IMG/VR virus record: IMGVR_UViG_2565956608_000009
Length of the DNA stretch: 41,580 nt
Direction: 5' to 3' (one strand)
Source of the DNA: a virus
Lineage: Duplodnaviria > Heunggongvirae > Uroviricota > Caudoviricetes
The position numbers and the translations under genes were made by a program. Positions 10,794 to 30,669 of the stretch are shown here, one piece after another. A model generated the notes under the pieces. The model did no database searches and was not told where the DNA came from. It worked only from the letters and a program-made list of their open reading frames with translations. Each line of letters opens with the position of its first letter. Position 1 is the first letter of the stretch.

Positions 10794-10800
10794 AAAACAA

Positions 10801-10816
10801 GGCCGCGAAAGCGGCC
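10801..10816. terminator. Terminator hairpin closing the minus-strand late operon (also follows the + strand small gene)
   Basis: GGCCGC-gaaa-GCGGCC; on the minus strand followed by TTGTTTTTT. Confidence 0.6.
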
Positions 10817-10817
10817 T

Positions 10818-10829
10818 GTGACATGTCAC
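10818..10829. repeat. 12-bp perfect palindrome GTGACATGTCAC, copy 1 of 3
   Basis: Identical 12-mer also at 28049-28060 and 30314-30325; copies 1 and 3 share the extended GTGACATGTCACACT. Confidence 0.6.
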
Positions 10830-10986
10830 ACTCACGTTATGACAAGCCTATGTATCCTGCTACACCAGATAATATCAAAATAACTGCAACAGCAAATTCG
10901 CCATCGTCAATGATACATTTACGGTTCATAACGCCAAGTGCAACAAGCGCAAACACAACAAGAATAAAAGCAATCATTTCTCATCC

Positions 10987-13461
10987 TTATTGCGGAGTGA
11001 CATCCTGTGGTCGCCACCAGTATGTCTGGTTAAACTCTTTCTTCGAACGTTGCTCCATTTTACGCAAATAGCCTGGTGAAAAATACTCCTGCATCTGGTT
11101 AAAGATCATGTGATCGAGAGCCGCCTTCAAGTACCAGAGATTCGCACCTGGCATCAGCCCCTTCCCCAGCTTAACCAGATCACCACCAGTCTGCTCATTC
11201 TTCCCTTCCACAGCATTTAACGGTATGCCCTGAGCAATCTTCACTACGTCATCAACCAGACCAGCTACCGGGCCAAGCATCGACGCCAGCGCGCCGCTTC
11301 CGTACCTAGTGTGATCTGACAATAAAAAGTCACCGTAAAGGCCAAGACCACCACCTTTCAGTAGAGCACCAAGCCAAAATTTAGCAGCATCTTCTCCTGT
11401 CATCTCGCGATGATTACGACCAGACGCAAGGTCGTTAAGTTGCTGAGACAAAGCGCCAAGAATGGTCGTGCTGGCAATAAACGTCGCAATATATGCCGCA
11501 CGCCCACCAGCAGACGGCATACCCATAGCGCGTGACCAGTGACGCATAACCACCGAGATAGGGAACGATTTAAACAGGAAAACACTTCTCGTTAATTCAC
11601 CTTTCCATGTTCCACGCTGAATACCAGAACCGGTTATCAGTTGCTCACGTGCTCCCGGTGTAATAACAGCCATATCAACTTCTTCAGTTACGGCACCGAG
11701 CAGTTTACGCATTGCCTCAAATTTCACGCGTTCAGGCTCACCAAGATGTTTAACTGCTGAATCAGGGATACGCATAATGCTTTCCGGTGTCAGCATCGTA
11801 TTATTACCGTTCCCCCAGTCCTCCTGTTGCGCCAGCTTCCATACGCTCCAGTCTGTGTCAGTAATCCCTTTGCTTTTCAGGATACGAAAATCAGAGTCAT
11901 CGAGGCTACGAAGGTCTGGTGTCCGTGACACTACTTCTCCCAGGCTTCCCATCATGGTTACGCCATAGGCGCGCTTGTGCGCATCTGACCATGCTGTAAG
12001 CCCACTGGCACGCATTACCGCCGTTGCAGCCCAACGAGACACTGACGGCCCCATATTATCCATCGCCCAGCGGTTAACGCTGCCAAGTAGAGATTCCATC
12101 GCCAGACCAGCGCGGCGCGCCCGCGCAAGCTCAGTACGGTTCGTTGGGTCCATAGCTTCAAGCTGGTTGCGGAATAACTGGTTCATTGGAAGGTTGGTCA
12201 CCTTCGCAGACAGATACATGGTTCCAAGATCAGAGAACGATGACAGCAACGCGGATCCGAGTCTGCTGGCAACCAGCCAGTTGCGGATATTGTCAGACCA
12301 TCGCGCGATGTGCGGATTTGCTACAGGCTGTGTCTTTCCGGAAATAAAGTTGTACAGATTCTCTGTGTTGTTCGCCAGCCGCTCGACTTTACCGGTTTTA
12401 CTCGGGTTAGCTGTTGCCGTTTCTGCCTTCACCTGATCAAGAAGAGAGCGGAAAACATGATCGGGGTTTGGGCCATATGTTTCCACCAGTGCAATATCTT
12501 TACTGATACCTTCCAGGTGACCGACCATGATTTCCCATAGAGAGCGATCGCCATAAAGTTGCTGATATTGCAGATAGGAATCTGCATCTTTGAAATGTAT
12601 CTGTCGTGATGCATTACCACGGTTAGCACGTGCGCCGGAAATTCGCATTCCGGTATCAGTAAGCTTATTCAGCCCACCAGTAGCGATCGTGTTATAAGCC
12701 TCTCCAAGAAATGCAGACAACTCGGCATCGTTCATCAGTTGTCCATCGGCTCGGATATAATATTTGCGATCCAGCTTACCTATAACATCGCTAACCCACT
12801 TATCCTTTGATACCGCCCCAACCTTTTCCATAGAATGATGTTGAGGGATCCCCCAGTTTTCGAGATAGCCAATGTCCCCACCAGCATCATTAAACCGGCG
12901 GCGCAGCAGCTCTGTAACTTCTCTCCACGCCTTAGCACCTTTTCTTGCTTTAGCATTGCCAGTATTTTGCCCCCGCATTTCATATACCAGGTCACGTACG
13001 CCCGCTTCATCTTCAAACAGACCAAAAAAGCGAGGATCAACTGCTTCGAATGCCTCCTGCAATTGACTCAATGCATAATCACGGGTGGCTTTTGTTCTGG
13101 ATTCAACAGAGAGGAAATTAGACTTACCGTCTGCATTAAAAGCTATAGTACGGTTAAGAGCGCCAAGTTTCCCATCAGCCCCTTGATAGCTATTGATAAA
13201 TTTATCCAATCTCTGACGTGCAGCTATAGTGAGAGCCACACGACGTTTCTTTAATGCCGCTTCTCGCTGTAATTCTTCAGATGCCAATTGTGCTGCACGA
13301 TACAGCCGCTCTGACTCGGAAAGTTGTCGCCACGACATAGGGTCATCACGAGCAATGGAGCGCATATTGCGATAAATGCGGTCTTCAATGTTCTGTATTT
13401 CTCGCGCCGTTAACGTGCGCTGCGCCGCCTGCTGGACCGCTTGTATACATTCCTGTCTCAT
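10987..13461 (-). CDS. Internal virion / ejection protein (large)
   Basis: 824 aa; position between nozzle-side genes and tailspike as in T7-like core protein sets; no specific motif recognised. Confidence 0.6.
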   Translation of the reverse strand: MRQECIQAVQQAAQRTLTAREIQNIEDRIYRNMRSIARDDPMSWRQLSESERLYRAAQLASEELQREAALKKRRVALTIAARQRLDKFINSYQGADGKLGALNRTIAFNADGKSNFLSVESRTKATRDYALSQLQEAFEAVDPRFFGLFEDEAGVRDLVYEMRGQNTGNAKARKGAKAWREVTELLRRRFNDAGGDIGYLENWGIPQHHSMEKVGAVSKDKWVSDVIGKLDRKYYIRADGQLMNDAELSAFLGEAYNTIATGGLNKLTDTGMRISGARANRGNASRQIHFKDADSYLQYQQLYGDRSLWEIMVGHLEGISKDIALVETYGPNPDHVFRSLLDQVKAETATANPSKTGKVERLANNTENLYNFISGKTQPVANPHIARWSDNIRNWLVASRLGSALLSSFSDLGTMYLSAKVTNLPMNQLFRNQLEAMDPTNRTELARARRAGLAMESLLGSVNRWAMDNMGPSVSRWAATAVMRASGLTAWSDAHKRAYGVTMMGSLGEVVSRTPDLRSLDDSDFRILKSKGITDTDWSVWKLAQQEDWGNGNNTMLTPESIMRIPDSAVKHLGEPERVKFEAMRKLLGAVTEEVDMAVITPGAREQLITGSGIQRGTWKGELTRSVFLFKSFPISVVMRHWSRAMGMPSAGGRAAYIATFIASTTILGALSQQLNDLASGRNHREMTGEDAAKFWLGALLKGGGLGLYGDFLLSDHTRYGSGALASMLGPVAGLVDDVVKIAQGIPLNAVEGKNEQTGGDLVKLGKGLMPGANLWYLKAALDHMIFNQMQEYFSPGYLRKMEQRSKKEFNQTYWWRPQDVTPQ

Positions 13462-13466
13462 TTAAT

Positions 13467-15269
13467 TTAACCTCTCAAGAAACACGCCACAGCAACATCA
13501 AACAGGCTGGAATCCTGTATTGCCTGCTCACTTTCCCTGTTAGCTTCATCCAGTACTTCACGCGCACTGCGCGATTGTGGATTACCATCATCATCCAGCA
13601 CGGTGATTATCATGTCAGGCGATTCAAGCAGCGAGTCTTCAGCTATACGCAGATCAATATCTCCTGCCGGATCTGCCATCATTTTTTGTTCTGTCTGTTG
13701 CAATATCTTACCGGGCTCAAAAGGAGCTACTTCGTCTGGCGTCCTGACCTCTGCTGTTTTATAGAATGAAACAGCCTGAGCATTAAGTTCACTTTCTGCC
13801 TGCTGTCGCCGTGCCAGTTCTGCTCGAGCTTCAAAAAACTGACCTCCAGGCTCGTGCGGTGCCAACGCGTTACGGGAAAATTCCAGGCGTTCTTGTGCCT
13901 GCCGGATTCGTTGATCAATATCACGAAGTCTGGCCTGTTTATCTGATCGAGCACGAGACAAAGCTTTACCGCTACCGGTTGGCTCTTCTGCAAGAATTTG
14001 TGCACGCTGTTCAGTGAGATTTTCAATAATTCGTTGGCTATTAGCGATTTCAGACTGGTAAACCTGTCTATCTCCACGCGGCAAAAGCTGCGCGGCCTGT
14101 TCTTCAAGCAACCGATTTTCTATAGCGCGCGCCGTTACTCCATCATCTACAGATGACAGAGCCTCATTAACTGCCTGAGACAGCAGACTCTTGCGCCCAG
14201 GAATTTCACTGAAAGATGCAGACTCAACAATGCTGGCAACGTCTACAGGTCTCCCCTGGCTAACATCAGACATAGCTTTTCGCAGAGCCTGAATGTGAGA
14301 ATTGCGCGAAAGCACGTTGATCGGCACGCCGGGCGCAATATCAATTTCAGCATGATGAGCGGCATTCGCCGCCAGTGCAGCATCAATATCAACTGGTGAA
14401 AAATTTGGTGCGCTTGTAGACTCGCCGCGAGAGTTAATAAATCTGCCGACACCACCAAACGCCACCCCAAGAACAGCATCAATAGCAATTGCCTGTCGAT
14501 CCAACACATCATACTGGTTAGCCATTTCGCTATAGCCACCATCACGAAGCGTTTTTGCAGTAAGCCCACGCTGTGCCATACCGAACGCAATATTTGTACC
14601 TGCGGCATAGGCAATATCTGGCGTTGCACTTACTGCTGTTGCTGCGGCGCGTCGCACTGAACTTTCACCCGTCCGCGCAAGCTGAGCCGCCACACCTTCC
14701 GCCAGCGCACCACCAGCACGTAACCCGAGGCTCATAGGGATCATTGTTCCGGCACCAGCAGTAATACCCTGCACTAATCCCGCTTCCTGCGCCGTCCTGA
14801 AATCAACACCCTGTGCTGTCAGCCGTTCAAACTCAGAAAAACCCTGTAGCGAAGTTACCGCCGCAGCACCTCCGGCCGGACCACCGAGCGTTGTACCGAT
14901 AACAGCCTGCCCGCCCATATCGAACAACCCATAAAGAACCTGCCCGGCGGTTCCGGTTGTCGCGGCATCAGGCGTCAGCCGCTTAACCTGCTGCTCTGCT
15001 AGTTTTCTCTGCTCGGCAATGTATGAAACTGAAGTGTCATTGAGCGAGGTGTTTTCGTTAACAAACTGAGCAATCGGGGATACGATTTTATCCATCCCTG
15101 CCCAGAGCAACTGATCTGGCTTTGCCACCAGCCCGGAGTACAAACCAGACAATGCCGCTCCTACAGCATTGTCGAAAAAACCAACATCGCTGTTAAAGCC
15201 AGCTGGATTTGATGCTGCTTCGTCAAGCTGCTGATTCTGGTTTACTGGATTAAGGCCAAAGTAACTCAT
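13467..15269 (-). CDS. Internal virion / ejection protein (Gly/Ala-rich)
   Basis: 600 aa; Gly/Ala-rich N-terminal half, coiled-coil C-terminal half; part of the same tightly packed operon. Confidence 0.6.
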   Translation of the reverse strand: MSYFGLNPVNQNQQLDEAASNPAGFNSDVGFFDNAVGAALSGLYSGLVAKPDQLLWAGMDKIVSPIAQFVNENTSLNDTSVSYIAEQRKLAEQQVKRLTPDAATTGTAGQVLYGLFDMGGQAVIGTTLGGPAGGAAAVTSLQGFSEFERLTAQGVDFRTAQEAGLVQGITAGAGTMIPMSLGLRAGGALAEGVAAQLARTGESSVRRAAATAVSATPDIAYAAGTNIAFGMAQRGLTAKTLRDGGYSEMANQYDVLDRQAIAIDAVLGVAFGGVGRFINSRGESTSAPNFSPVDIDAALAANAAHHAEIDIAPGVPINVLSRNSHIQALRKAMSDVSQGRPVDVASIVESASFSEIPGRKSLLSQAVNEALSSVDDGVTARAIENRLLEEQAAQLLPRGDRQVYQSEIANSQRIIENLTEQRAQILAEEPTGSGKALSRARSDKQARLRDIDQRIRQAQERLEFSRNALAPHEPGGQFFEARAELARRQQAESELNAQAVSFYKTAEVRTPDEVAPFEPGKILQQTEQKMMADPAGDIDLRIAEDSLLESPDMIITVLDDDGNPQSRSAREVLDEANRESEQAIQDSSLFDVAVACFLRG

Positions 15270-17779: not shown

Positions 17780-18324
17780 TATAATCCTCCAGGTAATCTG
17801 GTTCCTGCTGCTGCCCCGATTGGCGCAGGAGTGCTTTGAGTAAACGGACTCCACGTCCCACCAAACATCTGGTACGCACCGTATGCCTTCAGAGGCGCAG
17901 TGAGCAATGTTGTTGCTGCTCCCACATTCCCCTGTTTACGGGCTGAACTGGCTTCTGCTTTATAGTTAGCAGCCTGAACCTGATAACCGTAAGCCTCGCG
18001 TTGCGCGTTATTCACCGTCGTCAGCGAATCAAGGGCGCCAAACTGAGCAGTGTCACCAAATATATCCAGCGCGTTACCTGTAGATAAATCGGCGCCGGTC
18101 GCCCCCATTGTCGCCGCCTGTGTACCAAGCCGCTGTCGGGTCTCTCTGCGCCGTTGCTCAGCTTCAGCGTTACCCCTATTTATTGCATCATTTGCCTGAG
18201 CTGTGGCTATATCTGCGTTCGCTTCTGCAACCTTCGAGGCATACTTTCCCTGTTGGTACTGGGTGTATGCCTGAATGCCACTCATGGCGAGCATTGCGCC
18301 ACCAGCAATAACCGGATCGCACAT
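17779..18324 (-). CDS. Small internal virion protein, function unknown
   Basis: 181 aa; Ala/Gln-rich; translationally coupled within the late operon. Confidence 0.5.
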   Translation of the reverse strand: MCDPVIAGGAMLAMSGIQAYTQYQQGKYASKVAEANADIATAQANDAINRGNAEAEQRRRETRQRLGTQAATMGATGADLSTGNALDIFGDTAQFGALDSLTTVNNAQREAYGYQVQAANYKAEASSARKQGNVGAATTLLTAPLKAYGAYQMFGGTWSPFTQSTPAPIGAAAGTRLPGGL

Positions 18325-18788
18325 TATTTTCTCTCCATGTGAAATCTGTGGAAATTAAGACCAAGAGCACCATAAGGCGCGGCTTCTTCAAGCCTGAATC
18401 CAAGCCAGTGGAGCCATGCTTTGGCAACATGGTTTCGCTCGTCGACGTAGTTTTCCAGGCGCGGATAAACTGCCAGCATCTGCCGCAATACAGGGTGGCA
18501 GTGGCGAAGAAATGTCTTCTGATATTTTTCAATACGGCTGGTCCCGACCAGCCAGGGCGTACCATTGCCACCGATCATTGACGCCGGAGATACACCAAAC
18601 ATGGTTACCAGTTCTCCGTTCGCGAACCCTGACCAGGCCATAGTCGCAGTGCGCAGACCAACACGCAGCGCATCTTCGGTAGTCATCAGCGATACCGCAT
18701 ACAGTTCGTCAATATCAGCCTGACGAACATCCGGCAAAATCATCTGAAGATGCTCTTCGGTTGCGGGAATAATTTGAACACCAATCAT
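18324..18788 (-). CDS. Hypothetical late protein
   Basis: 154 aa; start overlaps the stop of the upstream gene (ATGA). Confidence 0.5.
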   Translation of the reverse strand: MIGVQIIPATEEHLQMILPDVRQADIDELYAVSLMTTEDALRVGLRTATMAWSGFANGELVTMFGVSPASMIGGNGTPWLVGTSRIEKYQKTFLRHCHPVLRQMLAVYPRLENYVDERNHVAKAWLHWLGFRLEEAAPYGALGLNFHRFHMERK

Positions 18789-21259
18789 CAGAATCCCCCA
18801 ACAGTAAGGCGAGGAATAACGGCAAGAACAGACAGCGGCAACGGATCAAGCTGACGGATTTTTACACGTCCGTTTTTGCCCCAGTTACTGTCCAGTTTCA
18901 CTTCTACTTTTCCGGTAGCATCATCAACAGGATCATCGTAGAACTCGAATTCACGCTGTGGATATTCGTACCATTTACCGCCGGGCGTAGTCGCCCAGAT
19001 GCCGCGGCTGGCATTCACAACCAGAGTAACGGATGGGATCACCTGTTTTTTGTCCAGCAGCGTTTCCTGTCCGTTAATGTTGATATCCAGTGTTTCGAAT
19101 TCAGCAGTTATTGGCAGGCCGATGTGCACTACAGCCCCCGGAGATTCCAGCGTGACGGCACCTCCGGAAACCACTTTCTGTGGTTCCACGTTCGCATCAG
19201 AGAGAATGTTTACGGTCTGGCCTTCAAGATGAGACAGGCCTCCAAATGTCCGGCGCGCCATCTGCCAGTTCGTGGTGGCCACATTCCTGAGGGATGGCGG
19301 GACGTTCCTGTTAGCACGAACCACTACAGCGGTATTGCTGGTTACAGAAATAATGTCGCAACGTAATTCTTTTGACACTTCATCGCCAGTATCAGGATCA
19401 GTTCCGGTATAAGGGAATTGTAGTTGCGCACCGACATCACTACTGGTGAAGTACGCACCACCAGAAATACTGATTGTATATTCCACGCGGTAATCCCATT
19501 CACCAGAACCACCAGTGATGGTCATCGTTCTGTCAGACGTATTTCTTCCATCATAGCTAAGGCCAGAATCAACAAAGAAAGCATCTTCATCGCTGGTAAA
19601 TAAACGGCTGGACAGCCGCTCGATGTATCTCACTGTTTGCCCGTTAACGGTTCGGTTAACGACGAAATACACCGCATCTTCATTTCCTTCGCTGATACTG
19701 CATGTGCTTTCATATTTTCCGGTACTGGACTGTGGTGCCCATGCAAAAACCTGTTGATCACGCAAATAGGTCATCACCAGTAATTTACCGTCATCACGAA
19801 TGCAGAAGGCGCTGGAGTAAGGGACAATAGAGAAGCACCAGTCAACAATGCTGTGCTTCTGAAAAAGATGATTGGCAAGGATGGTCAGGTCGTTCCCCTG
19901 ATAGCCGTCAACATCGAATGAGTAGGCCAGATCACGGACAACACTGCCTTTCTCCTGGACGAACAGAGCAATATTCGCCACGGCAATTGGTGGGACATTG
20001 CTCGAGCCATTTGATCCCTGAGAGCTGAATGCAAATGATGATGGGGTTAACACTTTGTTCTGGTCGCCGGTGATGACGTACTCACCTCCGGAAGTCAGCG
20101 CCACCAGCGAACCAACATCAATCAGGTGACGGATCTCATTAACCTGACGCCCGGCATAGGTGTAGATAATTCTGTCGTCATCCTGCGTAGGATTGCTTTT
20201 GCCAAAATCCTTATAATCCCCAGTACGGCTGGCTCAGATAGTCTGAGGGAACGCAGTCGATGCGGCGAAGTAAAGACGTTGTTGATAATAAACAACAGTG
20301 CCAGGATAACCATTAACACTGTTCCAGGCATATTTAGCCCATTTATAGCTGGCATTATCCTCGCCAACTACCTGCGAAGGGATATAGGAAATCACCTCGG
20401 CAGTTGCAGTAGTTCCATTTGCAGCAGTGATACGGGCAATGCCAAAACCACTGTGCAGATACTCCCACTCAATGCCAGTATCATCATCACCGGAGCCGCC
20501 CCAGCCATCCCATGATGTGCCTTCTGTATGCGAAGGGCGCAAAGTGCCTGTTTTGCCTGCTGTAACGGCGCGATAGTAGTTACTGTCTGCACGGCGAATA
20601 TCGCTAATCGACGTACTCTTACTGGTTTCCCATACCGGCACTGAATCCACTGCAGGCTGTTCCAGATAGAACAATTTGCCTACCTGCTCCGCGCCAAAAA
20701 TAGAGGCGCTTGCCGTTAACGTAATTGTCCCAGTGCTGGCGCTGGCATAAACCGTCACTGACTCGTCGATATTGATATCTTCAAATGGTCCGTTCTTCGT
20801 TACCACATCAACCAGTTGCCAGTTGTCATGCGCATAGCGACGCAACTCTTTCGGCGGGTATGCCGGATGAACAAGCGTAAGCACGTCGGCGCTTTGCGTG
20901 AATTTAATTCGGAACAGATCGGCTTCAGTATATGGCGTGGCAATTTCATAAATAACATTGCTGCTGTTCAGCACCAACGCACCATCTTTGATAACGCGCA
21001 TGTACTGGTGTCCGAACTCCAGAGCGTAGGTCTGAACCGTCGAGAACTGGAACGGGATCAGGCGGCATTTCCGATTTGGGTATTTGGCGGCACCGACAAA
21101 ACGCGTACCAGGTCGATTCTCAACGCCGCCATACTGCCGCACGATAAAGTTATCGCACTTGCGCAATGCCACCTGGTACTTCGCCATGTCGATACGACCG
21201 TACAACGACGGTCCAATCTCACCACCGGCAAAGCTGGGCTGGATCCAACTGATAGCCAT
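18788..21259 (-). pseudogene. T7 gp12-like tail nozzle gene interrupted by a single in-frame TGA (20234-20236)
   Basis: ORFs 20234-21259 (341 aa) and 18788-20104 (438 aa) are in the same frame; the 43 codons between them are open and the track start at 20104 is a GTG inside continuous coding; combined about 822 codons, the size expected for a nozzle protein. Confidence 0.6.
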
Positions 21260-22193: not shown

Positions 22194-22237
22194 TCCTGCA
22201 ATAAAGGGGCCGAAGCCCCTTGTCGGATTCGCGAGGC

Positions 22238-22582: not shown

Positions 22583-22583
22583 C

Positions 22584-23021: not shown

Positions 23022-23072
23022 CTTCTTTCTCCATTAGTGGGTCTGTTACGACCCACAGGTTAATAACAGGCG

Positions 23073-24065
23073 TTACACCACGCGGGCTTCTGTTTCCAGA
23101 AGCGCATCAGTTTCACGGATTGGTACACCACGGAATGAAGTCCACCACTCGCCTTCTGTCTCTTTTACGCTGATCGCCAGAGATGTTTTCTCCAGAGATT
23201 GCAGATCAAGAGCCTGGCCTACAGTGCGGTTCATGTAGAACACCGGGCGACCCATGCCACGATTTGGAATGCGATGCAGTGCTTTAACCATCAACTTCGC
23301 AATATTTGCGGCAGAGGAAGGTTCTGAAAGATTGCTGACATCGATGTTTGCAATGCGAACAACATAACGCCAGTCACGCAGAGCAAGTCCGTTGTCCCAT
23401 TTGTAATGGGTACGGTAGCCTTCGTACTTGCCGCCATTAGCATCTTCCAGTGTCACCTGGCCTTTATCTTCCATCTGAATGCCAGCCTTCTGCCCTTTCG
23501 GGAAGATGCCATGCACTGTGTTTTCGCCCCACACCACTAACCAGATTGAGGTGTTATCTGTACCCGTGCCACCAGCATCAATGATGTTCTGAGCATTACC
23601 TGCAGACAGGCTGGAATAGCGGGAGGACAGTCCCATAAACTGCTGAGGGTTAACGCTGGAATCACCATAAAACAGCGTCTGCGCCATCTGCTGATTCATC
23701 GCTTCAATAAATGCGCGGTCTTCAGACAGGCGGAATTCGGCGGTATTGCCGTTCAGATCAGCCAGTGACTTATCGACTTCAGCATAGGTTTCCAGCATGC
23801 CAACGGAATCGGTTACCTGCACTGTGGTTGATTTGCTTGGCTGTACGCCATAGTTCAGCAAACGCCAGGTAGCTGAAGGTAAACCAGAACGAATGGTGGT
23901 TCGGTGTCCGGTAGGAAGGTTCCCTTCGACAAAAGGCATATCCTGAAGGATCGGGTTAGTTTGACCGAGAAGCTCGATAATCTTATCGACTTTCCCGTTT
24001 GGATCGACGCGCTTACCCCAGTCAGCCAGCGTTAGCGCAGTTAAGCCTTTAACAGCCATTGTCAT
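23073..24065 (-). CDS. Major capsid protein
   Basis: 330 aa; follows the scaffold gene and precedes a stem-loop (23037-23056); assignment from order and size. Confidence 0.7.
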   Translation of the reverse strand: MTMAVKGLTALTLADWGKRVDPNGKVDKIIELLGQTNPILQDMPFVEGNLPTGHRTTIRSGLPSATWRLLNYGVQPSKSTTVQVTDSVGMLETYAEVDKSLADLNGNTAEFRLSEDRAFIEAMNQQMAQTLFYGDSSVNPQQFMGLSSRYSSLSAGNAQNIIDAGGTGTDNTSIWLVVWGENTVHGIFPKGQKAGIQMEDKGQVTLEDANGGKYEGYRTHYKWDNGLALRDWRYVVRIANIDVSNLSEPSSAANIAKLMVKALHRIPNRGMGRPVFYMNRTVGQALDLQSLEKTSLAISVKETEGEWWTSFRGVPIRETDALLETEARVV

Positions 24066-24073
24066 TTCCTCTC

Positions 24074-24775
24074 TTATTTGCCATAGAGCACTTCGGCCGC
24101 ACTACGCTGGCCTTCATTACCACCGGTGACCATGCCATCTTCAGACATCGCCTTTCCGATTTTCACGAACGTTTTGACCAGATCAGGGTGATTACCCAGC
24201 CCGGTGGTGTTCAGATATTCTTTGAGTTCAGGTGTCCCGAACTGGTCAAGCGCACGCTGTGCGGCGCTAAGGTTAGAAATCAACTTGTCGCCACCGATTT
24301 CTTTGTCAGCTTTTACATCAGCAGCCCACTGCTCGGTTGTTTTCTGCCAGGCTTCTGCCTGGCGCTGCTGCACACCTGCCAGAATCTTCGGATAAGCATC
24401 AACCAGCTTTTGCGCTTGCTCGTTGGTCAGGTTAAGTTCTCGCGCCACCGGCTCGAATTCCTTCAACGCTTCTGTATCCAGCTCTACGCCTTCGGCAGCC
24501 TGAAACTCGTACTTCTCAGGCGCACCCTCTGGTTTATCGCCGTCCTTTTTTTCATCCTGCTTATCGTTTTCAGGCTTTTTGTCATCAGCAGGTTTATCGC
24601 CATCAGCAACAGGTTGTGGCTTATCACCTTCCGATTGTGATGGATCACCAACTGGAGCAGGGTTATCACCTGCAGGCGCTGACGGTTCTGACGCAGCCGG
24701 AGCTGCTCCACCATCGACTGGTTGCTCATTGCAAAGACGGCGATACAGCAAACGCTCAAATAAATTCATGATCAC
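24074..24775 (-). CDS. Scaffolding protein
   Basis: 233 aa; highly acidic low-complexity N-terminal half, helical C-terminal half; between portal and capsid. Confidence 0.6.
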   Translation of the reverse strand: MIMNLFERLLYRRLCNEQPVDGGAAPAASEPSAPAGDNPAPVGDPSQSEGDKPQPVADGDKPADDKKPENDKQDEKKDGDKPEGAPEKYEFQAAEGVELDTEALKEFEPVARELNLTNEQAQKLVDAYPKILAGVQQRQAEAWQKTTEQWAADVKADKEIGGDKLISNLSAAQRALDQFGTPELKEYLNTTGLGNHPDLVKTFVKIGKAMSEDGMVTGGNEGQRSAAEVLYGK

Positions 24776-25068
24776 TCCTGTTCACTGGCCTCTTTGGCCA
24801 TCTTCAAATACTGTTCAGGGCAATGCGCCATAACGCGCTGAAACAGTTCCAGCGCCAGATTGCGTTGCCCCTCATTAAATGCCATTGCCATAGCATCCAT
24901 CGGAGAGATAGCGGAAAACACCCGGCCTTTCTCCAGCACAGACCAGACAACGCGACGCCCCTGTTCACTGCTCATGACAAAGCGAATGTCATCAATTTCA
25001 CGTTGTGCCATGTCACGTTGCTTACGGGCGTTTTCTTCTTTCAGTTGATCGTCTTCGTAATCTGTCAT
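24772..25068 (-). CDS. Hypothetical small protein between portal and scaffold
   Basis: 98 aa, charged; overlaps neighbouring genes by 4 nt at both ends. Confidence 0.45.
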   Translation of the reverse strand: MTDYEDDQLKEENARKQRDMAQREIDDIRFVMSSEQGRRVVWSVLEKGRVFSAISPMDAMAMAFNEGQRNLALELFQRVMAHCPEQYLKMAKEASEQE

Positions 25069-26744
25069 TGTGATTGCCCACCCTGACCACTAACTGCATT
25101 CGCCATAGCTGACAAAACACTCGGATCCGAAGTTTTAGCTTCGCTTAGCGTCTTGGCACCCTGTGCCGCCGCCATCCCCATCTCCATCATTTGTTGCTGC
25201 TGTTGTTGCTGTGCCCGTTGCTGGCGAGCCTGCTCAACCTGTTCCTGCGGAACAATGACGGTTGGAGACACTCCGGACATATCAGCGAATGCATCGATTG
25301 CCTGATCAACGTTGAGTTTGTCGAGAGCTTCTGGTTTCGCTTGCGCAAGTTGACCAATGAAGTTGACCGTAGACGCCAGACTGGACAGGCCGATAGACTT
25401 CTGCGCCTGAGCCATGACGGAAATGTATTCGACCTTCAGGGGCATACCTTCCATCGCGTCAGGCGGGGGCGGCAGCATGTTTTTACGCACCATCATCGAG
25501 AAAGCGCGGTCAATGAGAGGATTAAGACATTCGTCGTTCAGACGCTCCAGAACCGGCCCCAACATCAGAAGTTTTTCTTCTTTCATTTCGATCACCGCTT
25601 CAACAGGCATCGAACGGGTATTGATGTTCTGCAACATCATGAACAGATCGACAAAGTAGGCACTGTTAATGATTTGACGAGTGTCCTGAATGTCTGCCAC
25701 CAGATCTGCTGTACTGGGGTTAACCAGATAAGCAGGCCTGAAACCATCCTGACCAGTAATCTGATCGATATACGTGATGTCGCCAGGAAGAAGGGAGGCG
25801 CGCTGATTCTTGAGGGAAGTCGGAGCAATCATCGGCGGATTGGTGGCTTTATCAATCAACTGCGACTTGCGCTTCTGGAGAAGCTGCAATGCCTTAACAG
25901 GTCCAAGCGCCAGCATACCCGGGCATGATGATCCATAAACATCTTCGCCGTTAACTTCCCAGCGCGGAGCCATAATTGGAAACTCATCGAATCCTGACTC
26001 ACGCAACAACTTGTCGTTATCACCGCCAACCTCGTAATAAACCGATTTGAATGGCTTGTTCTTGCTATCCAGCTTCGATGTATCGCGGTCAATGTTCGGG
26101 TAAACCGAATGCATCACTTCAATCCACTTCTCGTAGGTGCCGCTTTCCCACATGCTTTTTACGGATTCGCTGACGTTATTTAGCCCGAACTCCTGAACAA
26201 GCTGACGAACAGTCATAGAGAACTTGCGAAAACAGGTGTCCACACTGCCACGAGGTGAGTTAGCCAGGTAGTAACTGCCTATCGGGAATGGCATTGTGCG
26301 AATGATGTCATCGTCATCCTCCAGTACCGCCATTGCACCAGTGCTGTATGTGCCGAGGCTTCCGTATAACTGCGGCAGCGACTGATAGAGATTCGACTTA
26401 TTGAACATATCGTTCATGCGGTTCTGCACCGCCTCAAGCCACAACTTAACAGGGCCATAATCCATCATTTCAGGATCTGGCGTAGCCAGGCGAAACCACG
26501 GACGCGCGGGGCTTGTGATGCCTGACATCATGCCGCTGGCGAGAGTGCGCGCCGCCATAGTCCCGGTCGAATCAATAATGCGTGTATTGCGTCGATCGTT
26601 ACGGTTGACCTCAGAAGTCAGAAAGCGGGAACCACGCGGGTTGATGTAATCACTCAACTCGCGCCAGTGCGGCTCGAACGACTGACGCTCGCTTTCAAGT
26701 TGTGCGAACTGTTTGTTCAATCGCTCTTTAGTTGTTTCCGCCAT
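25065..26744 (-). CDS. Portal protein (T7 gp8-type head-to-tail connector)
   Basis: 559 aa; Gln/Met-rich C-terminus QARQQRAQQQQQQQMMEMGMAAAQGA closely resembles the T7 gp8 C-terminus; SD GGAG before ATG 26742-26744. Confidence 0.8.
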   Translation of the reverse strand: MAETTKERLNKQFAQLESERQSFEPHWRELSDYINPRGSRFLTSEVNRNDRRNTRIIDSTGTMAARTLASGMMSGITSPARPWFRLATPDPEMMDYGPVKLWLEAVQNRMNDMFNKSNLYQSLPQLYGSLGTYSTGAMAVLEDDDDIIRTMPFPIGSYYLANSPRGSVDTCFRKFSMTVRQLVQEFGLNNVSESVKSMWESGTYEKWIEVMHSVYPNIDRDTSKLDSKNKPFKSVYYEVGGDNDKLLRESGFDEFPIMAPRWEVNGEDVYGSSCPGMLALGPVKALQLLQKRKSQLIDKATNPPMIAPTSLKNQRASLLPGDITYIDQITGQDGFRPAYLVNPSTADLVADIQDTRQIINSAYFVDLFMMLQNINTRSMPVEAVIEMKEEKLLMLGPVLERLNDECLNPLIDRAFSMMVRKNMLPPPPDAMEGMPLKVEYISVMAQAQKSIGLSSLASTVNFIGQLAQAKPEALDKLNVDQAIDAFADMSGVSPTVIVPQEQVEQARQQRAQQQQQQQMMEMGMAAAQGAKTLSEAKTSDPSVLSAMANAVSGQGGQSQ

Positions 26745-26758
26745 TTCAATGACTCCGG

Positions 26759-26965
26759 TTACTGACCAAGCAGCGTTTTACCGCTGGTATTAGCGGTTGA
26801 TGTGTCACCCTGAGAACCGGTAAGCAGCGTAGAACTACGACCAGCAGCAGCGCGACGGCGACGTGTTTCTTCGTCGCGGGCATCAACAACGGCGGCATCC
26901 TGCTCCTGTGGTGCTGCCTGAACTTCTGGTGTTGCAGGCACTGATGGTGAGCTACCCATGCACAT
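26759..26965 (-). CDS. Small hypothetical protein upstream of portal
   Basis: 68 aa, low complexity; initiation region CGGAGTCATTGA-ATG nearly identical to that of the portal gene; the overlapping 79-aa alternative frame (26746-26985) looks less protein-like. Confidence 0.3.
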   Translation of the reverse strand: MCMGSSPSVPATPEVQAAPQEQDAAVVDARDEETRRRRAAAGRSSTLLTGSQGDTSTANTSGKTLLGQ

Positions 26966-27033
26966 ATCAATGACTCCGTACGCAATTAAATTATTACCAA
27001 TTTAACCACATATGATTTATTTATCGTAGACAG

Positions 27034-27070
27034 TTGACATTTAACGCACGAATTATTACCTTTCAGGTAA
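27034..27070 (+). promoter_or_regulatory. Candidate promoter (-35 TTGACA) with operator palindrome TTACC-tttca-GGTAA (27056-27070)
   Basis: Perfect -35 hexamer 27034-27039; perfect operator copy overlapping the expected -10/+1 region; directed toward the tRNA. Confidence 0.5.
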
Positions 27071-27392
27071 GCAGAGAGTGCATTCCTGTTATTAACCTGA
27101 CTGGCTTGTCGTTAAATTGAACAGGTGGAGTGAGATTTTATTTTGAGCAGTACGGCGTATGGCACATGCGCCGATAGCGGTCTGGATACGTTTAATGGGC
27201 ACCCTCCCTTGCTCGGGCAAACGAACCAGGTAGCCGGAATGTGCAAGTCGAGCGGTTTTATTCCGCGCACGGGGATTCACCATCCCGGCGATTCGGTGTG
27301 ACGCCTCGGAAGAGACGAGGGTGCAACGATGAGAGCATTTATGGAGCCGCGACAAAGTGTGGCGCCTTAACAGGCTAAGTGCTCTCAGCGTT

Positions 27393-27469
27393 GTGGCATT
27401 AGCTCAGTTGGACAGAGCAACCGCCTTCTAAGCGGTCGGTCGCAGGTTCGAATCCTGCATGCCACGCCA
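27393..27469 (+). tRNA. tRNA-Arg (anticodon UCU), phage-encoded
   Basis: 77 nt with CCA; 7-bp acceptor stem GTGGCAT/ATGCCAC, D-arm GCTC/GAGC, anticodon stem ACCGC/GCGGT with loop CTTCTAA, T-arm GCAGG-TTCGAAT-CCTGC; internal to the prophage, so not the integration site. Confidence 0.85.
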
Positions 27470-27672
27470 GAATCACGCCTAAGGACCGTGATGCCAGAAG
27501 TTCCAGGGGCTTGGCGGTGATGGTTTCCCTTGAAGGACTATCACCGCCCTTTTTACAGCAGGACGCCATTGCGATGGCTTCATGCTGTAAACCAGTACAG
27601 CCACGGAAGGCATAACTCATTGCTTCCAGTTCGCCCGGTTCGCAGGGCATTTTTTTAAGGTGAGATTAGACT

Positions 27673-28044
27673 ATGAGTGACAAAGACATTGAATCTGAAA
27701 TTCAGGCTAAAGGTTTAGCCGCGCCGCGCGTTACGCCAGACCATATCGAGAGTATTATTGCTCAGGAGGCATATTTCACAGCAGAAGATGGTGTCTTTGG
27801 CGTAGCCATAAAAGCGAAACATACTGGCGGAGAGGTAAACTACCAGCCGCACGAATCACTTTCTCTGCTGACGTTCTGCGTTCTGGTGCTGCGCAATGGC
27901 TTCACCGTCACCGGAGAGAGCGCCTGTGCAAGCCCGGAAAACTTTGATGCGGAAATTGGTCGGAAGATTGCCCGGCAGAATGCTGTAAACAAAATCTGGA
28001 TGCTTGAAGGTTACTTGCTGAAGCAGAAGTTAAGCGAGCAATAA
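27673..28044 (+). CDS. Gp49-like phage protein of unknown function
   Basis: 123 aa; SD AAGGTGAG; pattern TFCVLVLRNGFTVTGESACASPENFD recalls the N4 gp49 / Sf6 gp66 family; oriented opposite to the flanking late genes. Confidence 0.5.
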   Translation: MSDKDIESEIQAKGLAAPRVTPDHIESIIAQEAYFTAEDGVFGVAIKAKHTGGEVNYQPHESLSLLTFCVLVLRNGFTVTGESACASPENFDAEIGRKIARQNAVNKIWMLEGYLLKQKLSEQ

Positions 28045-28048
28045 CACC

Positions 28049-28060
28049 GTGACATGTCAC
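28049..28060. repeat. 12-bp perfect palindrome GTGACATGTCAC, copy 2 of 3
   Basis: Begins 4 nt after the stop of the 27673-28044 gene and 4 nt before a terminator hairpin. Confidence 0.6.
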
Positions 28061-28064
28061 AAAC

Positions 28065-28091
28065 AGCCAGCCGATGAGCTGGCTTTGTTTT
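28065..28091 (+). terminator. Rho-independent terminator
   Basis: AGCCAGC-cgatga-GCTGGCT followed by TTGTTTT. Confidence 0.65.
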
Positions 28092-28134
28092 ATCCTCACC
28101 AGAGGATATCTCCGTCATTATCCCCGCTAACGGA

Positions 28135-29610
28135 TTAAGCATAGGGATCGTAATCTGTAATGGCCTTGCCTTGCTGGTTCTGCTGCCCGGGAATTCGCAG
28201 ACGCTTAGACACAGGGAACGCAAACGTCAGCAGTAGCGCATCGCCTTTACCCGGCGAACGCCCAAGCCGCTCCTTGATATCTTCCTTCGGTTCGATAACG
28301 ATTTTACCGTCCACTCGAACTTTGTACTCTGCCGCCGACAGGTCGTCCGCTGTTTCCTGGTCATCCAGCATGCCGCCCAGCCTCAGCCATGTCTTGCATG
28401 AGTTGAACATCTCCCCACGCTTGTTGAGCATCTGCGGGTCAGTAGACGCGCCACCGAACGGAACAAGTTGCCATGTGCGCCCCCAACCGTCACCGATTGA
28501 CTTCAGCCCGGTACCGTAACCGAAGTCGATGAACACCGCGTCAGCCTGATACTGGTCTTCAAAGTCAGCGATACGCTTCGCCATAATCAGATCGTCAGTG
28601 GTCTTGTTGCCGGTCCACAGCACCTTACTATGCAGCCCCTGCCGCAGGTATATCACAGCGTCATCAACGCCGGAGTATGCCGGGTCAACGCCGATTATCA
28701 CCGGAGCATGTGCAACCTGCGCAGCGGTTACCACCCGTTTCATTGCCTCGTCAGTAAGTCCGGTAGGGATAAACTGCAATTCAGATGCATCCGGGAATAT
28801 GCCGCGCACACGGATTTTAACGAAGTCGCTGTCTTCCCCGTAGTCATCAACCCATTTCTGCAACTGCTGTTTGTTAGTGCCTTCCACCGTCCGGCTGTCA
28901 ATCTGCGCAGTTTTCCAGCGGTGTTTATATTTGCGGAAACATTCGCGGAAACGCCCGGTGTTACGTGTAGGGTTTCCGAACGCCACCCAGATAATCTCAG
29001 TGTCTTCGTCCGTAAGCGCACCCTCAGCAACTTCCCACACCAGATCCGCAATGTTCGACGCTTCATCGAATACCACGATGATGCGTTTGCGCTCGTTGTG
29101 TAGTCCGGCGAATGCCTCAGTGTTGTGCTCAGACCAGGGGATTGCGTCAGCTCGCCACCGCTTGTCGTGCCCAGGATCATTGCTGTACATCGCGGTAGCG
29201 GTACAGGTAAACCAGTCTTTCGTGATAGCAAGGTTCGACCACTTGATAATTTCCGGCCAGGTCTTCGTTCGTAGCTGGTTGTCGGTGTTGGCGGTCACCA
29301 CGACCTTACAATCCTCGCAAGTGGACATGCCCCAGTTGATCAGCATTGAGATGAATGCGGATTTACCAATACCGTGACCAGAAGCGCGTGCCAGCATAAG
29401 CGGCTGATAGCGCGTCGCTGGATTCTGCAGGTGATCACGTATCTCTCGGAACGCATCAGCCTGCCACTGACGTGGGCCGGTAGCATGTGCCAGTTCAGTC
29501 CCTTCTTCCCCCCACGGGAACGCATAGAGGGCATAGCCAAGCGGATCGTGAGTGAACCCTGCAATATCCTCGATCAACTGCTCTTCAGGAGATAACGCTG
29601 TATCTGTCAC
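28135..29610 (-). CDS. Terminase large subunit
   Basis: 491 aa; Walker A-like RASGHGIGKS; C-terminal nuclease-like region; overlaps the small-subunit gene by 4 nt. Confidence 0.85.
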   Translation of the reverse strand: MTDTALSPEEQLIEDIAGFTHDPLGYALYAFPWGEEGTELAHATGPRQWQADAFREIRDHLQNPATRYQPLMLARASGHGIGKSAFISMLINWGMSTCEDCKVVVTANTDNQLRTKTWPEIIKWSNLAITKDWFTCTATAMYSNDPGHDKRWRADAIPWSEHNTEAFAGLHNERKRIIVVFDEASNIADLVWEVAEGALTDEDTEIIWVAFGNPTRNTGRFRECFRKYKHRWKTAQIDSRTVEGTNKQQLQKWVDDYGEDSDFVKIRVRGIFPDASELQFIPTGLTDEAMKRVVTAAQVAHAPVIIGVDPAYSGVDDAVIYLRQGLHSKVLWTGNKTTDDLIMAKRIADFEDQYQADAVFIDFGYGTGLKSIGDGWGRTWQLVPFGGASTDPQMLNKRGEMFNSCKTWLRLGGMLDDQETADDLSAAEYKVRVDGKIVIEPKEDIKERLGRSPGKGDALLLTFAFPVSKRLRIPGQQNQQGKAITDYDPYA

Positions 29611-30203
29611 TGATTACCATCCTGACGTTCTTTGAGTCGCTTCCTGGCTGCTGCTATGCGATCAGCAATTGTCACATTCACATTAACATCCAGACGTTCT
29701 TTGAACGCGTTGACATCAACATGCTTACCAATCAGCTCAAGGTTCTTCACCTTGTCAGGCCATTTAATTTTTTTGAGGATTGTCTCTATCGAATCCTCGT
29801 TCATGTTCATGATGGTCGACGACAGATCAAAGCCACTAAGCGTAGTGCGCCAGATTTTCGGCCACTCACGGATTGGTTTAAGGCTCCCATCGTCGTTGAG
29901 GATGTCGATCACGTCCATCTGGTCGATCTCCACCAGGCGCATGAGAACGTAATCAGCACTGACGCGCATTCGTTTGTTGCGCTCCTCCATCAACTCGGCA
30001 ATCCGTTTCTGAATGCGTTCATCGCGCATCATGACACTGGCTTTAACTGCCGCTGTGTTTGGGGAGAATCCTGCGTTAATCGCTGCCTGAGTCTGGTTTT
30101 CAGGCGTTTTGATGTATGACTGGCAATAAGCCTCCTGCATTGCTGTGAGCGGCTTAAATTGCGTTGATTTGCGTTTATAGGTTTTAGGTTCAGCAGGCAT
30201 CAT
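29607..30203 (-). CDS. Terminase small subunit
   Basis: Likely start at tandem ATG 30198-30203 with SD GGTGG (track starts at TTG 30281, which would span a terminator hairpin); HTH-like LTAMQEAYCQSYIKTPENQTQAAINAGFS. Confidence 0.7.
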   Translation of the reverse strand: MMPAEPKTYKRKSTQFKPLTAMQEAYCQSYIKTPENQTQAAINAGFSPNTAAVKASVMMRDERIQKRIAELMEERNKRMRVSADYVLMRLVEIDQMDVIDILNDDGSLKPIREWPKIWRTTLSGFDLSSTIMNMNEDSIETILKKIKWPDKVKNLELIGKHVDVNAFKERLDVNVNVTIADRIAAARKRLKERQDGNQ

Positions 30204-30220
30204 AACCACCGTGGTAATAG

Positions 30221-30235
30221 TTACCGTTGTGGTAA
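30221..30235. promoter_or_regulatory. Operator-like palindrome TTACC-gttgt-GGTAA just upstream of the terminase small-subunit start
   Basis: Perfect TTACC-N5-GGTAA; only copy adjacent to the late operon; within the track's N-terminal extension of the 29607 ORF. Confidence 0.45.
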
Positions 30236-30246
30236 TAATACCATGC

Positions 30247-30272
30247 AAAATAAAGCCGCCATAGTTGGCGGC
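30247..30272 (-). terminator. Intrinsic terminator-like hairpin upstream of the terminase genes
   Basis: Minus-strand GCCGCCA-acta-TGGCGGC followed by TTTATTTT. Confidence 0.45.
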
Positions 30273-30313
30273 AGTATTCAAAATCCATCAAATTCATCAT
30301 GCATAATCTACTC

Positions 30314-30325
30314 GTGACATGTCAC
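30314..30325. repeat. 12-bp perfect palindrome GTGACATGTCAC, copy 3 of 3
   Basis: Overlaps the stop codon of gene 30322-30669; about 45 nt upstream (in transcript direction) of hairpin 30247-30272. Confidence 0.6.
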
Positions 30326-30669
30326 ACTATTAATTTCGTTTCATGCCAGCCTTTAGTCACCCAGCATTGCGAGTCACCATTACACGGGCATGAATTAACT
30401 GGAACTCTCTCGCCGCACTTACCGCAACGTTTTCTGCTGATCGATTTTATACGCCCGCGCACGCGTGCATCATCCTGGCGGATCAGTAACGCGATGTATT
30501 CGCTCATTTCATACGGCGCACGACCAGGGCGACGGGCGGCACAGTTACGCTCCAGCATTTCCTGCTCCTGCTTATCCAGCACCAGTTCAATTTTGCGCTC
30601 ACCGGCGGCGGACTGCCGAGCGCGCTGCGCGGCTTTGCGTTCTGCGGGGGATTTAGCCACGAATCGCAC
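30322..30669 (-). CDS. Hypothetical protein with C-terminal Cys cluster (candidate late-gene regulator)
   Basis: About 112-115 aa; C-terminus RCGKCGERVPVNSCPCNGDSQC; start ambiguous between GTG 30669 and GTG 30660 (SD GGAG 9 nt upstream of the latter); last gene before the terminase operon. Confidence 0.45.
   Translation of the reverse strand: MRFVAKSPAERKAAQRARQSAAGERKIELVLDKQEQEMLERNCAARRPGRAPYEMSEYIALLIRQDDARVRGRIKSISRKRCGKCGERVPVNSCPCNGDSQCWVTKGWHETKLIV

Follow-up and report, generated by a model that had tools for sequence, protein, structure and literature searches.

The DNA analyzed here is a stretch of 41,580 nucleotides (the window), a phiV10/epsilon15-like (Uetakevirus) E. coli prophage inserted between yfgI and guaA, and it raises the question of what a short perfect palindrome, repeated at several junctions between its gene modules, is for. 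An initial annotation had reported three copies of this 12-base sequence, GTGACATGTCAC, each next to a terminator hairpin, and all three were found exactly as described (Table 1), while 100 dinucleotide-preserving shuffles of the window yielded none and the naive expectation is ~0.0025 copies per window. The single copy with one mismatch, GTGCCATGTCAC at 25005-25016, is located within a coding region. Commonness in the host genome, which that annotation had named as a ground for doubt, is not seen in the ~58 kb of E. coli chromosome flanking the prophage, where there are no exact copies.

Table 1. Palindromic sites and associated features, in window coordinates.
Feature	Position	Strand	Context
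Site A, GTGACATGTCAC	10818-10829		7 nt past the stop of the last structural-operon gene (10837-10977, - strand)
Terminator-like hairpin (10800-10817) with T-tract	10790-10817	-	Abuts site A (gap 0)
Site B, GTGACATGTCAC	28049-28060		4 nt past the stop of the Gp49-family moron gene (27673-28044, + strand)
Terminator-like hairpin (28065-28084) with T-tract	28065-28094	+	4 nt downstream of site B
Two repressor-operator motif copies	30202-30236		Between terminator C and the likely small terminase start
Intrinsic terminator-like hairpin (30255-30272) with T-tract	30247-30272	-	Closes the early-right operon, 41 nt downstream of site C
Site C, GTGACATGTCAC	30314-30325		Overlaps the TGA stop of the regulator gene (30324-30322, - strand)
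Gene for the 112-aa protein, proposed palindrome binder	30322-30660	-	Ribbon-helix-helix and Cys4 zinc domains; PHROG 536

As a matter of anatomy, the sites do coincide with module junctions, as had been proposed. Site A separates the last structural-operon gene from the moron and BRO-N cluster that converges on it. Site B is flanked by the Gp49-family gene (a tRNA-Arg is found at 27393-27469) and by the large terminase gene (28135-29610, - strand), which runs toward it and whose stop is 74 nt away. Site C marks the end of the last early gene, and the small terminase gene lies downstream of it. All three are at 3' ends of transcription units beside terminators, and divergent promoter regions showed no copy. 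The hairpins and their T-tracts were found where they had been placed, and in the direction of each T-tract the palindrome precedes the hairpin in every case; this order stands, with a distance of 41 nt at site C in place of the earlier estimate of about 45 nt. At the converging junctions A and B the terminator T-tract is present on one side only. The distance from site to terminator is variable (22, 41 and 254 nt), and because of this variation site and terminator would appear to act independently. The association with terminators that had been claimed is real in the Uetakevirus lineage and does not extend across the family: as a family-wide rule it was rejected, since immediate adjacency is confined to Uetakeviruses and hairpins of terminator-like form occur at a background of 1.34 per kb.

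Close relatives were informative as to which parts of this arrangement are maintained. Absence from their equivalent junctions had been named as another ground for doubt; the palindrome is present in phiV10, epsilon15 and Tyrion at junctions whose flanks have diverged to 74-82% identity. The equivalents of site A are at 19493 in phiV10, at 19517 in epsilon15, where the palindrome overlaps the gp18 stop, and at 20377 in Tyrion; one phiV10 copy has a single mismatch and is masked, since the reference record is opened inside it. Overall, site C is kept in 77 of 80 related viral contigs. Site B is present in 52 of 77 relatives, carries one mismatch in 4 and is absent from 21, and, being missing in about a quarter of relatives, appears dispensable; where present its offset from the terminase gene is fixed while the adjoining cargo changes, and in other variants it is missing outright. 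Conservation at site C ends 2 nt past the palindrome, after which four different downstream modules follow, and one relative (L073) retains the left half GTGACAT alone before continuing into unrelated sequence. The boundary at site C would seem to arise because the site is part of a gene cassette, and is not taken as evidence of a dedicated recombination signal.

The gene in question was identified by comparing distant phages. In a scan of 1024 half-sites at 5 spacings, GTGAC-N2-GTCAC was the top scorer, with 14 occurrences in 223 kb over six backbones (mean 0.28, next best 4). It is found in Uetakeviruses, the myovirus ZF40, the telomere phages N15 and phiKO2, P2-like phages and a Vibrio siphovirus, with three copies each in the window, epsilon15, Tyrion, ZF40, N15, phiKO2 and Vibrio K233, and one copy plus a degenerate copy in a Yersinia P2-like phage. 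The central dinucleotide varies (AT, TG, GC, AC, CG) and the half-sites are fixed. The sole ORF common to all six backbones compared is the gene for the 112-aa protein of PHROG 536, and lambda and P2 have neither this gene nor the motif. Judged by these co-occurrences, the motif is associated with one gene and not with a phage backbone.

More distant members of the family follow the same pattern with some variation. In the P2-like group, whose protein has 36% identity, one site is located at most 10 kb downstream of the gene in 34 of 37 loci and none is upstream, the site falling where the early operon meets the converging portal-terminase operon. Distant members have the variant sites GTGACCGGTCAC or GTGTCCGGTCAC, which in 4 of 7 loci coincide with the gene end or come within ~30 nt of it, and in two further loci of the seven are ~420 nt downstream or ~900 nt upstream of the gene. 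In Pseudomonas phages the half-site co-varies to GTKAC, and variant sites also occur inside terminase and head genes. A scan of viral contigs with TGTGACATGTCACA returned at least 120 stretches, a number near the chance expectation for the collection, and is informative only because, among the stretches listed, 32 partial ones also contained the gene and many held 2-3 sites.

Based on this gene-motif co-occurrence, the palindromes are very probably operators of the 112-aa protein. The initial annotation had singled out a Cys-cluster ORF at 30322-30669 as the candidate partner, and this ORF accompanies the motif in every backbone examined. Among the roles that it had listed, the co-occurrence favors a binding site for a late-gene regulator, antitermination is retained as one live mechanism, and a methylation or nuclease target is disfavored for reasons given below.

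The 112-aa protein matches the profile of PHROG 536 ('transcriptional regulator') with an E-value of 4.6e-54 over residues 5-114 of 115, and has homologues in phiV10 (gp55), epsilon15 (gp49), N15 (gene 46) and ZF40 (gp22); Pfam and NCBIfam models gave no match to it. Its structure model is confident and comprises one basic N-terminal helix, a ribbon-helix-helix domain with the β-strand, two helices and structural likeness to known members expected of this fold, and then a Cys4 zinc domain, while Foldseek searches of this model against the PDB and viral libraries gave no informative match. For the zinc domain, a PDB profile search placed TraR and YbiI on top with marginal E-values of 0.04-0.06. 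A TraR/DksA-like zinc finger was not adopted: the Pfam zinc finger (DksA/TraR C4) was detected in 0 of 57 family members, and where the CxxC-x17-CxxC pattern of DksA/TraR has its second CxxC pair, the phage protein has dispersed cysteines. From its dyad symmetry and its co-occurrence with the gene, the motif is suggested to be bound by a dimer that would insert a two-stranded sheet into the major groove, in the manner of ribbon-helix-helix regulators such as Arc, Mnt, CopG, MetJ and the antitoxins MazE and ParD. The phage protein differs from these in its additional basic helix and zinc domain, and in having its operators at the 3' ends of genes and operons, one of them in its own stop codon, and not at its own promoter.

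This last feature is recurrent. In Uetakeviruses, N15, phiKO2, the Yersinia P2-like phage and Pseudomonas phages, the TGA stop of the gene falls inside the half-site, at motif positions 2-4 and in the same register across four lineages; in ZF40 the stop is TAA and is located two codons earlier. The coding sequence of the regulator thus runs into its own proposed operator, an arrangement known from roadblock autoregulation of the LacI-O3 type, in which an operator over the end of the regulator gene would lead the bound protein to truncate the message before its stop; LacI differs in being a helix-turn-helix tetramer and in looping DNA between operators. A literature search with the 12-mer and six variants returned no relevant match, and no paper or experimental work on the protein family was found.

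The organization of transcription in the window provides the context in which such a protein would act. A prophage-repressor operator motif of the type ATTACC-N5-GGTAAT, annotated in the epsilon15 record as repressor sites, occurs 16 times in the window against 1.05 expected. Copies lie upstream of the terminase, portal, tailspike and lysis units and indicate that these units have separate promoters, and the two copies that follow terminator C imply a repressor-controlled promoter for the terminase unit itself; with separate promoters of this kind, read-through would not be needed. A promoter-like match at site C is weak (GTGACA as the -35 hexamer, an 18-nt spacer, CATGAT). The reading that site C supplies the -35 hexamer of a late promoter was rejected, as the following sequence is unconserved, with four unrelated versions among relatives.

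These observations lend themselves to an explanation in which the palindromes are operators of the phage's own ribbon-helix-helix and zinc protein that serve as boundary elements at operon ends, and to this explanation as a whole we would give an even chance. A dimer of the protein would bind GTGAC-N2-GTCAC, and gene and site would travel as one cassette, with the TGA stop of the gene within the first half-site. The lytic genes seem to be divided among several units, each apparently under a repressor-controlled promoter of its own, and three consecutive ones (early-right, terminase and structural) each end with one site beside a one-way intrinsic terminator. Bound protein would halt RNA polymerase at these junctions; at the converging sites A and B it would also cover the side left open by the one-way terminator, and at the end of its own gene it would limit its own synthesis. 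There, polymerase stalled before an operator that contains the stop codon would give rise to transcripts without one, an outcome described for LacI and O3. That binding results in a roadblock or insulation at operon ends is a tentative choice, preferred to antitermination of the type considered next.

Several features of the family are at odds with a boundary role. Strong roadblocks at the Pseudomonas sites within terminase and head genes would harm late expression, and a single 12-bp site with a small dimer may be a weak roadblock in any case. Site B can be lost, as it is in about a quarter of relatives. In four backbones the gene occupies the position of lambda Q, the usual seat of positive late regulators, and in Pseudomonas phages a putative terminator hairpin directly before the holin gene, with no promoter in the scan, calls for read-through.

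An alternative, which we consider unlikely, is that the protein binds the palindrome and passes to an RNA polymerase that crosses it, which then reads through the adjacent and later terminators from early into late genes. PHROG 536 would then add a fourth family to the Q-type late antiterminators, structurally unrelated to the others, composed of ribbon-helix-helix and zinc domains and loading from GTGAC-N2-GTCAC at a distance from promoters and in either direction, a proposition to which we attach the same low probability; if true, one factor would license read-through at several operon boundaries of a phage genome. Like lambda Q, the gene closes the early operon, its DNA site following at once and a terminator and the late genes lying directly beyond; it immediately precedes the terminase or lysis genes in Uetakeviruses (phiV10, epsilon15, Tyrion), Vibrio K233, HK97-like Pseudomonas phages (L257-L259) and ZF40. 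The known Q families are mutually non-homologous, and Q-lambda itself pairs a DNA-binding motif with a zinc ribbon (PMC9388147). The position of every window site 5' of a terminator in its working direction fits this proposal, the variable distance to the terminator suits a processive factor, and ZF40 has one site per early operon arm, like nutL and nutR. In the Pseudomonas phages the gene stop with its site is followed after ~130 nt by a hairpin, which we read as a terminator and the consensus scan did not list, and then by the holin start, and the scan found no promoter.

Other observations go against antitermination. The Q arrangement, in which the element lies within a late promoter with a proximal pause and then a terminator, was not found: a terminator does follow in the Uetakevirus lineage, but site C has no conserved promoter or sigma-dependent pause element and four different sequences come after it, and adjacency to terminators is not shared by the family. 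The Uetakevirus late units have promoter motifs of their own under repressor control. Site B faces the terminator that ends a moron transcript running antisense into the terminase gene. Gene and site are retained in N15 and phiKO2 in spite of a true Q along with a separate late promoter, and in P2-like phages in spite of their use of Ogr. The phage protein is of an unrelated fold and has extra sites at operon ends and inside genes. Searches for homology to Q families gave no Pfam or NCBIfam match and no Q structure among the PDB matches, and no ribbon-helix-helix antiterminator is known.

The half-sites also invite comparison with matS, the 13-bp site of MatP, whose consensus is GTGACRNYGTCAC (PMC6907758) and whose half-sites are identical to those of the palindrome. 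It is conceivable, if rather improbable, that the protein marks dispersed phage sites in order to bridge or tether DNA or to exclude a host DNA-organizing complex, or, in a variant of this idea, that host MatP itself binds them. With 1-5 sites per genome, kilobases apart and partly intragenic (N15 repA, ZF40, Pseudomonas late genes), the distribution resembles that of matS or parS more than that of promoter operators, and position relative to promoters and terminators is not conserved between backbones. Most sites, however, fall between genes or at their ends. All copies have a 2-bp spacer, giving a site of 12 bp, where matS has a spacer of 3 bp, and GTGAC-N3-GTCAC is absent from all motif-bearing phages examined. 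The protein is phage-encoded, its model lacks the four-helix bundle and coiled coil of MatP, and the family reaches Pseudomonas phages, whose hosts are not known to have MatP. Homology to MatP was not demonstrable: hhalign of the family alignment against E. coli MatP (MatP sequence confirmed against PDB 4d8j) gave a non-significant E-value of 0.23 over 38 columns, and PDB profile searches with the family did not return MatP.

That the palindrome is a recombination boundary or the target of a nuclease or methyltransferase, and not an operator, is very improbable. The sites do coincide with mosaic junctions, L073 diverges directly after its retained half-site, and the prophage encodes an MT-A70 methyltransferase. 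The methylation or nuclease target suggested earlier nevertheless lost its footing, as no recombinase, nuclease or methylase is common to the motif-bearing backbones; a varying center between fixed half-sites fits a dimeric binder better than a target of the restriction or methylation type, and site B holds its offset from the terminase gene through changes of cargo or is simply missing. We give the least credence of all to an element that acts as RNA, for instance as a small hairpin at transcript 3' ends or near ribosome-binding sites. All three window copies are transcribed just before terminators, and in N15, phiKO2, Vibrio K233 and one Uetakevirus variant the site is located 10-19 nt before a start codon. 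The RNA would fold into a stem of only 4-5 bp with a 4-nt loop, and a search for alternative pairing with the terminators found none; the variable center and palindromic symmetry fit recognition of duplex DNA by a dimer, and duplex DNA is what ribbon-helix-helix proteins bind.

The assignment of operators to the 112-aa protein, drawn from comparative sequence analysis, would provide a cognate DNA motif for PHROG 536, a family with no tested function. This family is found in prophages of 9-13% of complete E. coli genomes, and also in phages of Salmonella, Klebsiella, Enterobacter, Pectobacterium, Yersinia, Serratia, Vibrio and Pseudomonas. The pair of gene and site recurs in at least six unrelated phage types, and is shared by podovirus, myovirus and siphovirus backbones as a portable regulatory cassette. 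For annotation, the motif marks operon boundaries in Uetakevirus-type phages, and the identity of its half-sites with those of matS poses an evolutionary question about DNA recognition of the MatP type. The placement of operators at the ends of units and in the regulator's own stop codon is unusual for the ribbon-helix-helix fold, and may show how temperate phages insulate or couple their operons.

The motif GTGAC-N2-GTCAC tracks a single gene, that of the 112-aa protein homologous to phiV10 gp55, rather than any phage backbone, and this is the central result of our analysis. We counted all 1024 inverted five-base half-sites at five spacings over 223 kb from six backbones; the commonest was GTGAC at a spacing of 2 bp, with 14 occurrences distributed over 6 of 6 genomes, compared with a mean of 0.28 and a runner-up count of 4. 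BLASTP clustering of all ORFs identified the gene for the 112-aa protein as the only one common to all six backbones, the next cluster spanning three, while lambda and P2 contain neither gene nor motif. About 58 kb of host flank contained no exact copy of the palindrome and one GTGACAGGTCAC.

Homologues of this protein were found in very different phages, each with the motif. The Pectobacterium myovirus ZF40 has three exact TGTGACATGTCACA, one located 2 nt past the homologue's stop; the telomere phages N15 and phiKO2 have three GTGACTGGTCAC whose positions correspond, one of them across that stop; and a Yersinia P2-like phage has GTGACGCGTCAC across the stop as well as a degenerate copy. Vibrio phage K233 (33% protein identity) has three copies, and in 34 of 37 loci of a P2-like group (36%) a single copy follows the gene within 10 kb, with none upstream. 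In 4 of 7 loci from more distant members, GTGACCGGTCAC or GTGTCCGGTCAC lies at the gene end or close to it, and in Pseudomonas HK97-like phages (27%) the half-site has co-varied to GTKAC, with GTGACAGGTAAC across the stop codon, two GTTACGCGTAAC, and GTTACCCGTCAC. The predicted binding partner of the palindromes is thus very probably the 112-aa protein.

Two of the three ZF40 sites, 5125 and 7622, flank its cI-cro-cII immunity region, ~1.1-1.2 kb on either side, a layout that recalls nutL and nutR; pairs ~2.1-2.2 kb apart with similar flanks recur in viral contigs L139, L141, L160 and L163. One site in N15 (28550) and phiKO2 (31182) adjoins a CTGATCAG-N3-CTGATCAG repeat that includes GATC sites, and the terminator preceding the antirepressor operon follows it 112-115 nt downstream. 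In K233, sites 21342 and 35942 are each exactly 19 nt ahead of a start codon, one of them that of the small terminase gene, with a ribosome-binding site in between. Pseudomonas phages L257-L259 have two copies of the variant CGTTACGCGTAACG and one GTTACCCGTCAC (13047, 14217, 18837) within terminase and head-completion genes.

The initial annotation described three palindromes in the window, each beside a terminator hairpin, and this description is accurate: GTGACATGTCAC occurs exactly three times (sites A, B and C), and a hairpin lies 0, 4 and 41 nt away, respectively, the palindrome being 5' in the T-tract-bearing direction each time. Not one copy appeared in any dinucleotide-preserving shuffle of the window. 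Allowing mismatches adds only GTGCCATGTCAC, which may be a weak site or a mere coding coincidence; the corresponding position carries the mirror variant GTGACATGGCAC in phiV10 and no copy in epsilon15. RNA folding of the palindrome gave a tiny hairpin only and no alternative structure.

Palindromes, terminator-like hairpins and related features of the window
Feature	Position	Strand	Context
Site A	10818-10829		between final structural-operon gene and converging cluster including BRO-N protein
Hairpin + T-tract, site A	10800-10817	-	consensus scan
Site B	28049-28060		between large terminase gene end and end of converging Gp49-family moron, which adjoins tRNA-Arg gene
Hairpin + T-tract, site B	28065-28084	+	consensus scan
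Site C	30314-30325		overlaps stop codon of last early gene
Hairpin + T-tract, site C (terminator C)	30255-30272	-	consensus scan
Last early gene (112-aa protein; phiV10 gp55)	30322-30660	-	
One-mismatch copy	25005-25016		within small gene 24772-25068 (-)
phiV10 gp15 homologue	18788-21259	-	ORFs 18788-20104 and 20234-21259
Small terminase gene	29607-30281	-	annotated start TTG at 30281
ATTACC-N5-GGTAAT	3190, 7548, 8667, 8760, 9827, 27055, 30202, 30220, 32412, 32474, 34396, 34781, 35493, 35555		plus weaker matches

The window consists of E. coli chromosome (1-1162; yfgH, yfgI) followed by a prophage whose integrase gene adjoins guaA, a phiV10/epsilon15-like podovirus (Uetakevirus) whose conventional plus strand is the window's minus strand. 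Its first 33.7 kb are identical to a prophage of strain SCU-116, its identity is 98% to phiV10 across packaging and structural genes and 74-82% to epsilon15, and the region is found in 486-706 of 5426 complete E. coli genomes. The prophage may be defective, since its gp15 homologue (a large tail or internal-virion protein gene) is broken into two ORFs and RefSeq reports an internal stop in the SCU-116 counterpart, which it labels a pseudogene. The repressor operator annotated in epsilon15, ATTACC-N5-GGTAAT, is in strong excess in the window (16 copies, ~1 expected). Copies lie in the immunity region and ahead of the units for terminase, portal and structural proteins, tailspike, lysis and BRO-N, which suggests that the prophage repressor directly silences many promoters. 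With operators ahead of most lytic units, the lytic genes seem to be divided into several such units, each driven from a separate promoter under repressor control. The early-right, terminase and structural units, which follow one another, all close with a palindrome beside a terminator. The start annotated for the small terminase gene precedes both terminator C and the repressor operators; a more plausible start is the ATG at 30200 or 30203, which has GGTGG ahead of it and agrees with the Tyrion annotation.

Among relatives, epsilon15 and Enterobacter phage Tyrion have three perfect copies each at equivalent positions despite differing flanks. Besides its copies at 2262 and 19493, phiV10 has a third with one mismatch; its record (NC_007804.2) was opened right after the gp55 stop, inside this palindrome (GTGA at 39101-39104, then CATGTTAC at 1-8), so that a linear scan gives only two. 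Site C is present in 77 of 80 related viral contigs. Site B, across the 77 loci that could be scored, is present in 52, has one mismatch in 4 and is absent from 21, independent of the identity of the adjoining cargo gene. When 38 distinct site C regions were aligned, conservation ended two bases past the palindrome, and four unrelated modules followed: two versions with a terminator plus terminase, a small inserted gene starting 10 nt past the site, and a LexA-box promoter. The palindrome therefore belongs with the upstream gene, not the downstream sequence. The distance from site C to the terminator varies (22, 41 or 254 nt). In the relatives L073, L084 and L086, a TTGACT/TATACT promoter 6 nt downstream of site C, overlapped by the LexA box CTGTTTAAATATACAG, drives a different downstream gene, and site C would centre near -48 of this SOS-controlled promoter. 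In L073, site B is also reduced to its left half, GTGACAT, ~29 nt past the large terminase stop; the AT-rich sequence beyond it is unrelated, as if recombination had joined the two at the palindrome centre.

The 112-aa protein matches PHROG 536 (E 4.6e-54) and no Pfam or NCBIfam model. It belongs to a small family, with 155 representatives among 1.8 billion proteins when clustered at 50% identity. In a 57-member alignment C79 and C82 are invariant, R8, R13, P87, G95 and C99 are near-invariant, and a fourth cysteine, C91, is present across members. AlphaFold2 gave a confident model (pLDDT 90.6), and the C-terminal half gave marginal profile matches to the zinc fingers of TraR and YbiI (E 0.04-0.06), unconfirmed by Pfam.

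What binding achieves is less certain, and we tentatively favor a roadblock or insulator. Junctions A and B are converging, with a terminator T-tract on one side only at each, and P2-like phages likewise have the site between two converging operons, the early and the portal-terminase one, close to cos; we counted the variable spacing to the terminator and the lack of alternative RNA structure as fitting this boundary role as well. In four lineages the stop codon lies inside the operator in the same register, and polymerase stalled there would yield stop-less transcripts of the regulator's own gene, a mechanism known for LacI and O3. The roadblock model leaves the intragenic late-gene sites of L257-L259 unexplained, and such sites speak for Q-like antitermination, as do the position of the gene, which is that of lambda Q in four backbones, a hairpin in the Pseudomonas phages read as a terminator directly ahead of the holin gene (where the consensus scan gave neither terminator nor promoter), and the fact that Q families are non-homologous functional analogues (PMC9388147). 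We nevertheless consider antitermination unlikely, given that no conserved promoter or pause element accompanies the site, some phages with the gene also encode a genuine Q or Ogr regulator, and the sites do not adjoin terminators throughout the family.

An architectural or MatP-like role draws on the half-sites of matS (GTGACRNYGTCAC, 13 bp; PMC6907758), which are those of the phage motif, there set one base closer. This is resemblance only and not membership of the MatP family: profile comparison with MatP (sequence verified) was not significant (E 0.23), and its four-helix bundle and coiled coil are missing from the phage protein, whose family reaches Pseudomonas phages. We regard such a role as quite improbable, and the remaining options as less probable still.

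Within the literature library searched, no paper mentions the 12-mer or a variant of it in such a setting, and none characterizes the 112-aa protein. A ribbon-helix-helix regulator paired with a palindromic operator is of an already known kind; what makes this a new variant is the combination of domains, the position of the predicted operators, which lie where operons end and across the stop codon of the gene itself, and the occurrence of this cassette in unrelated phages.
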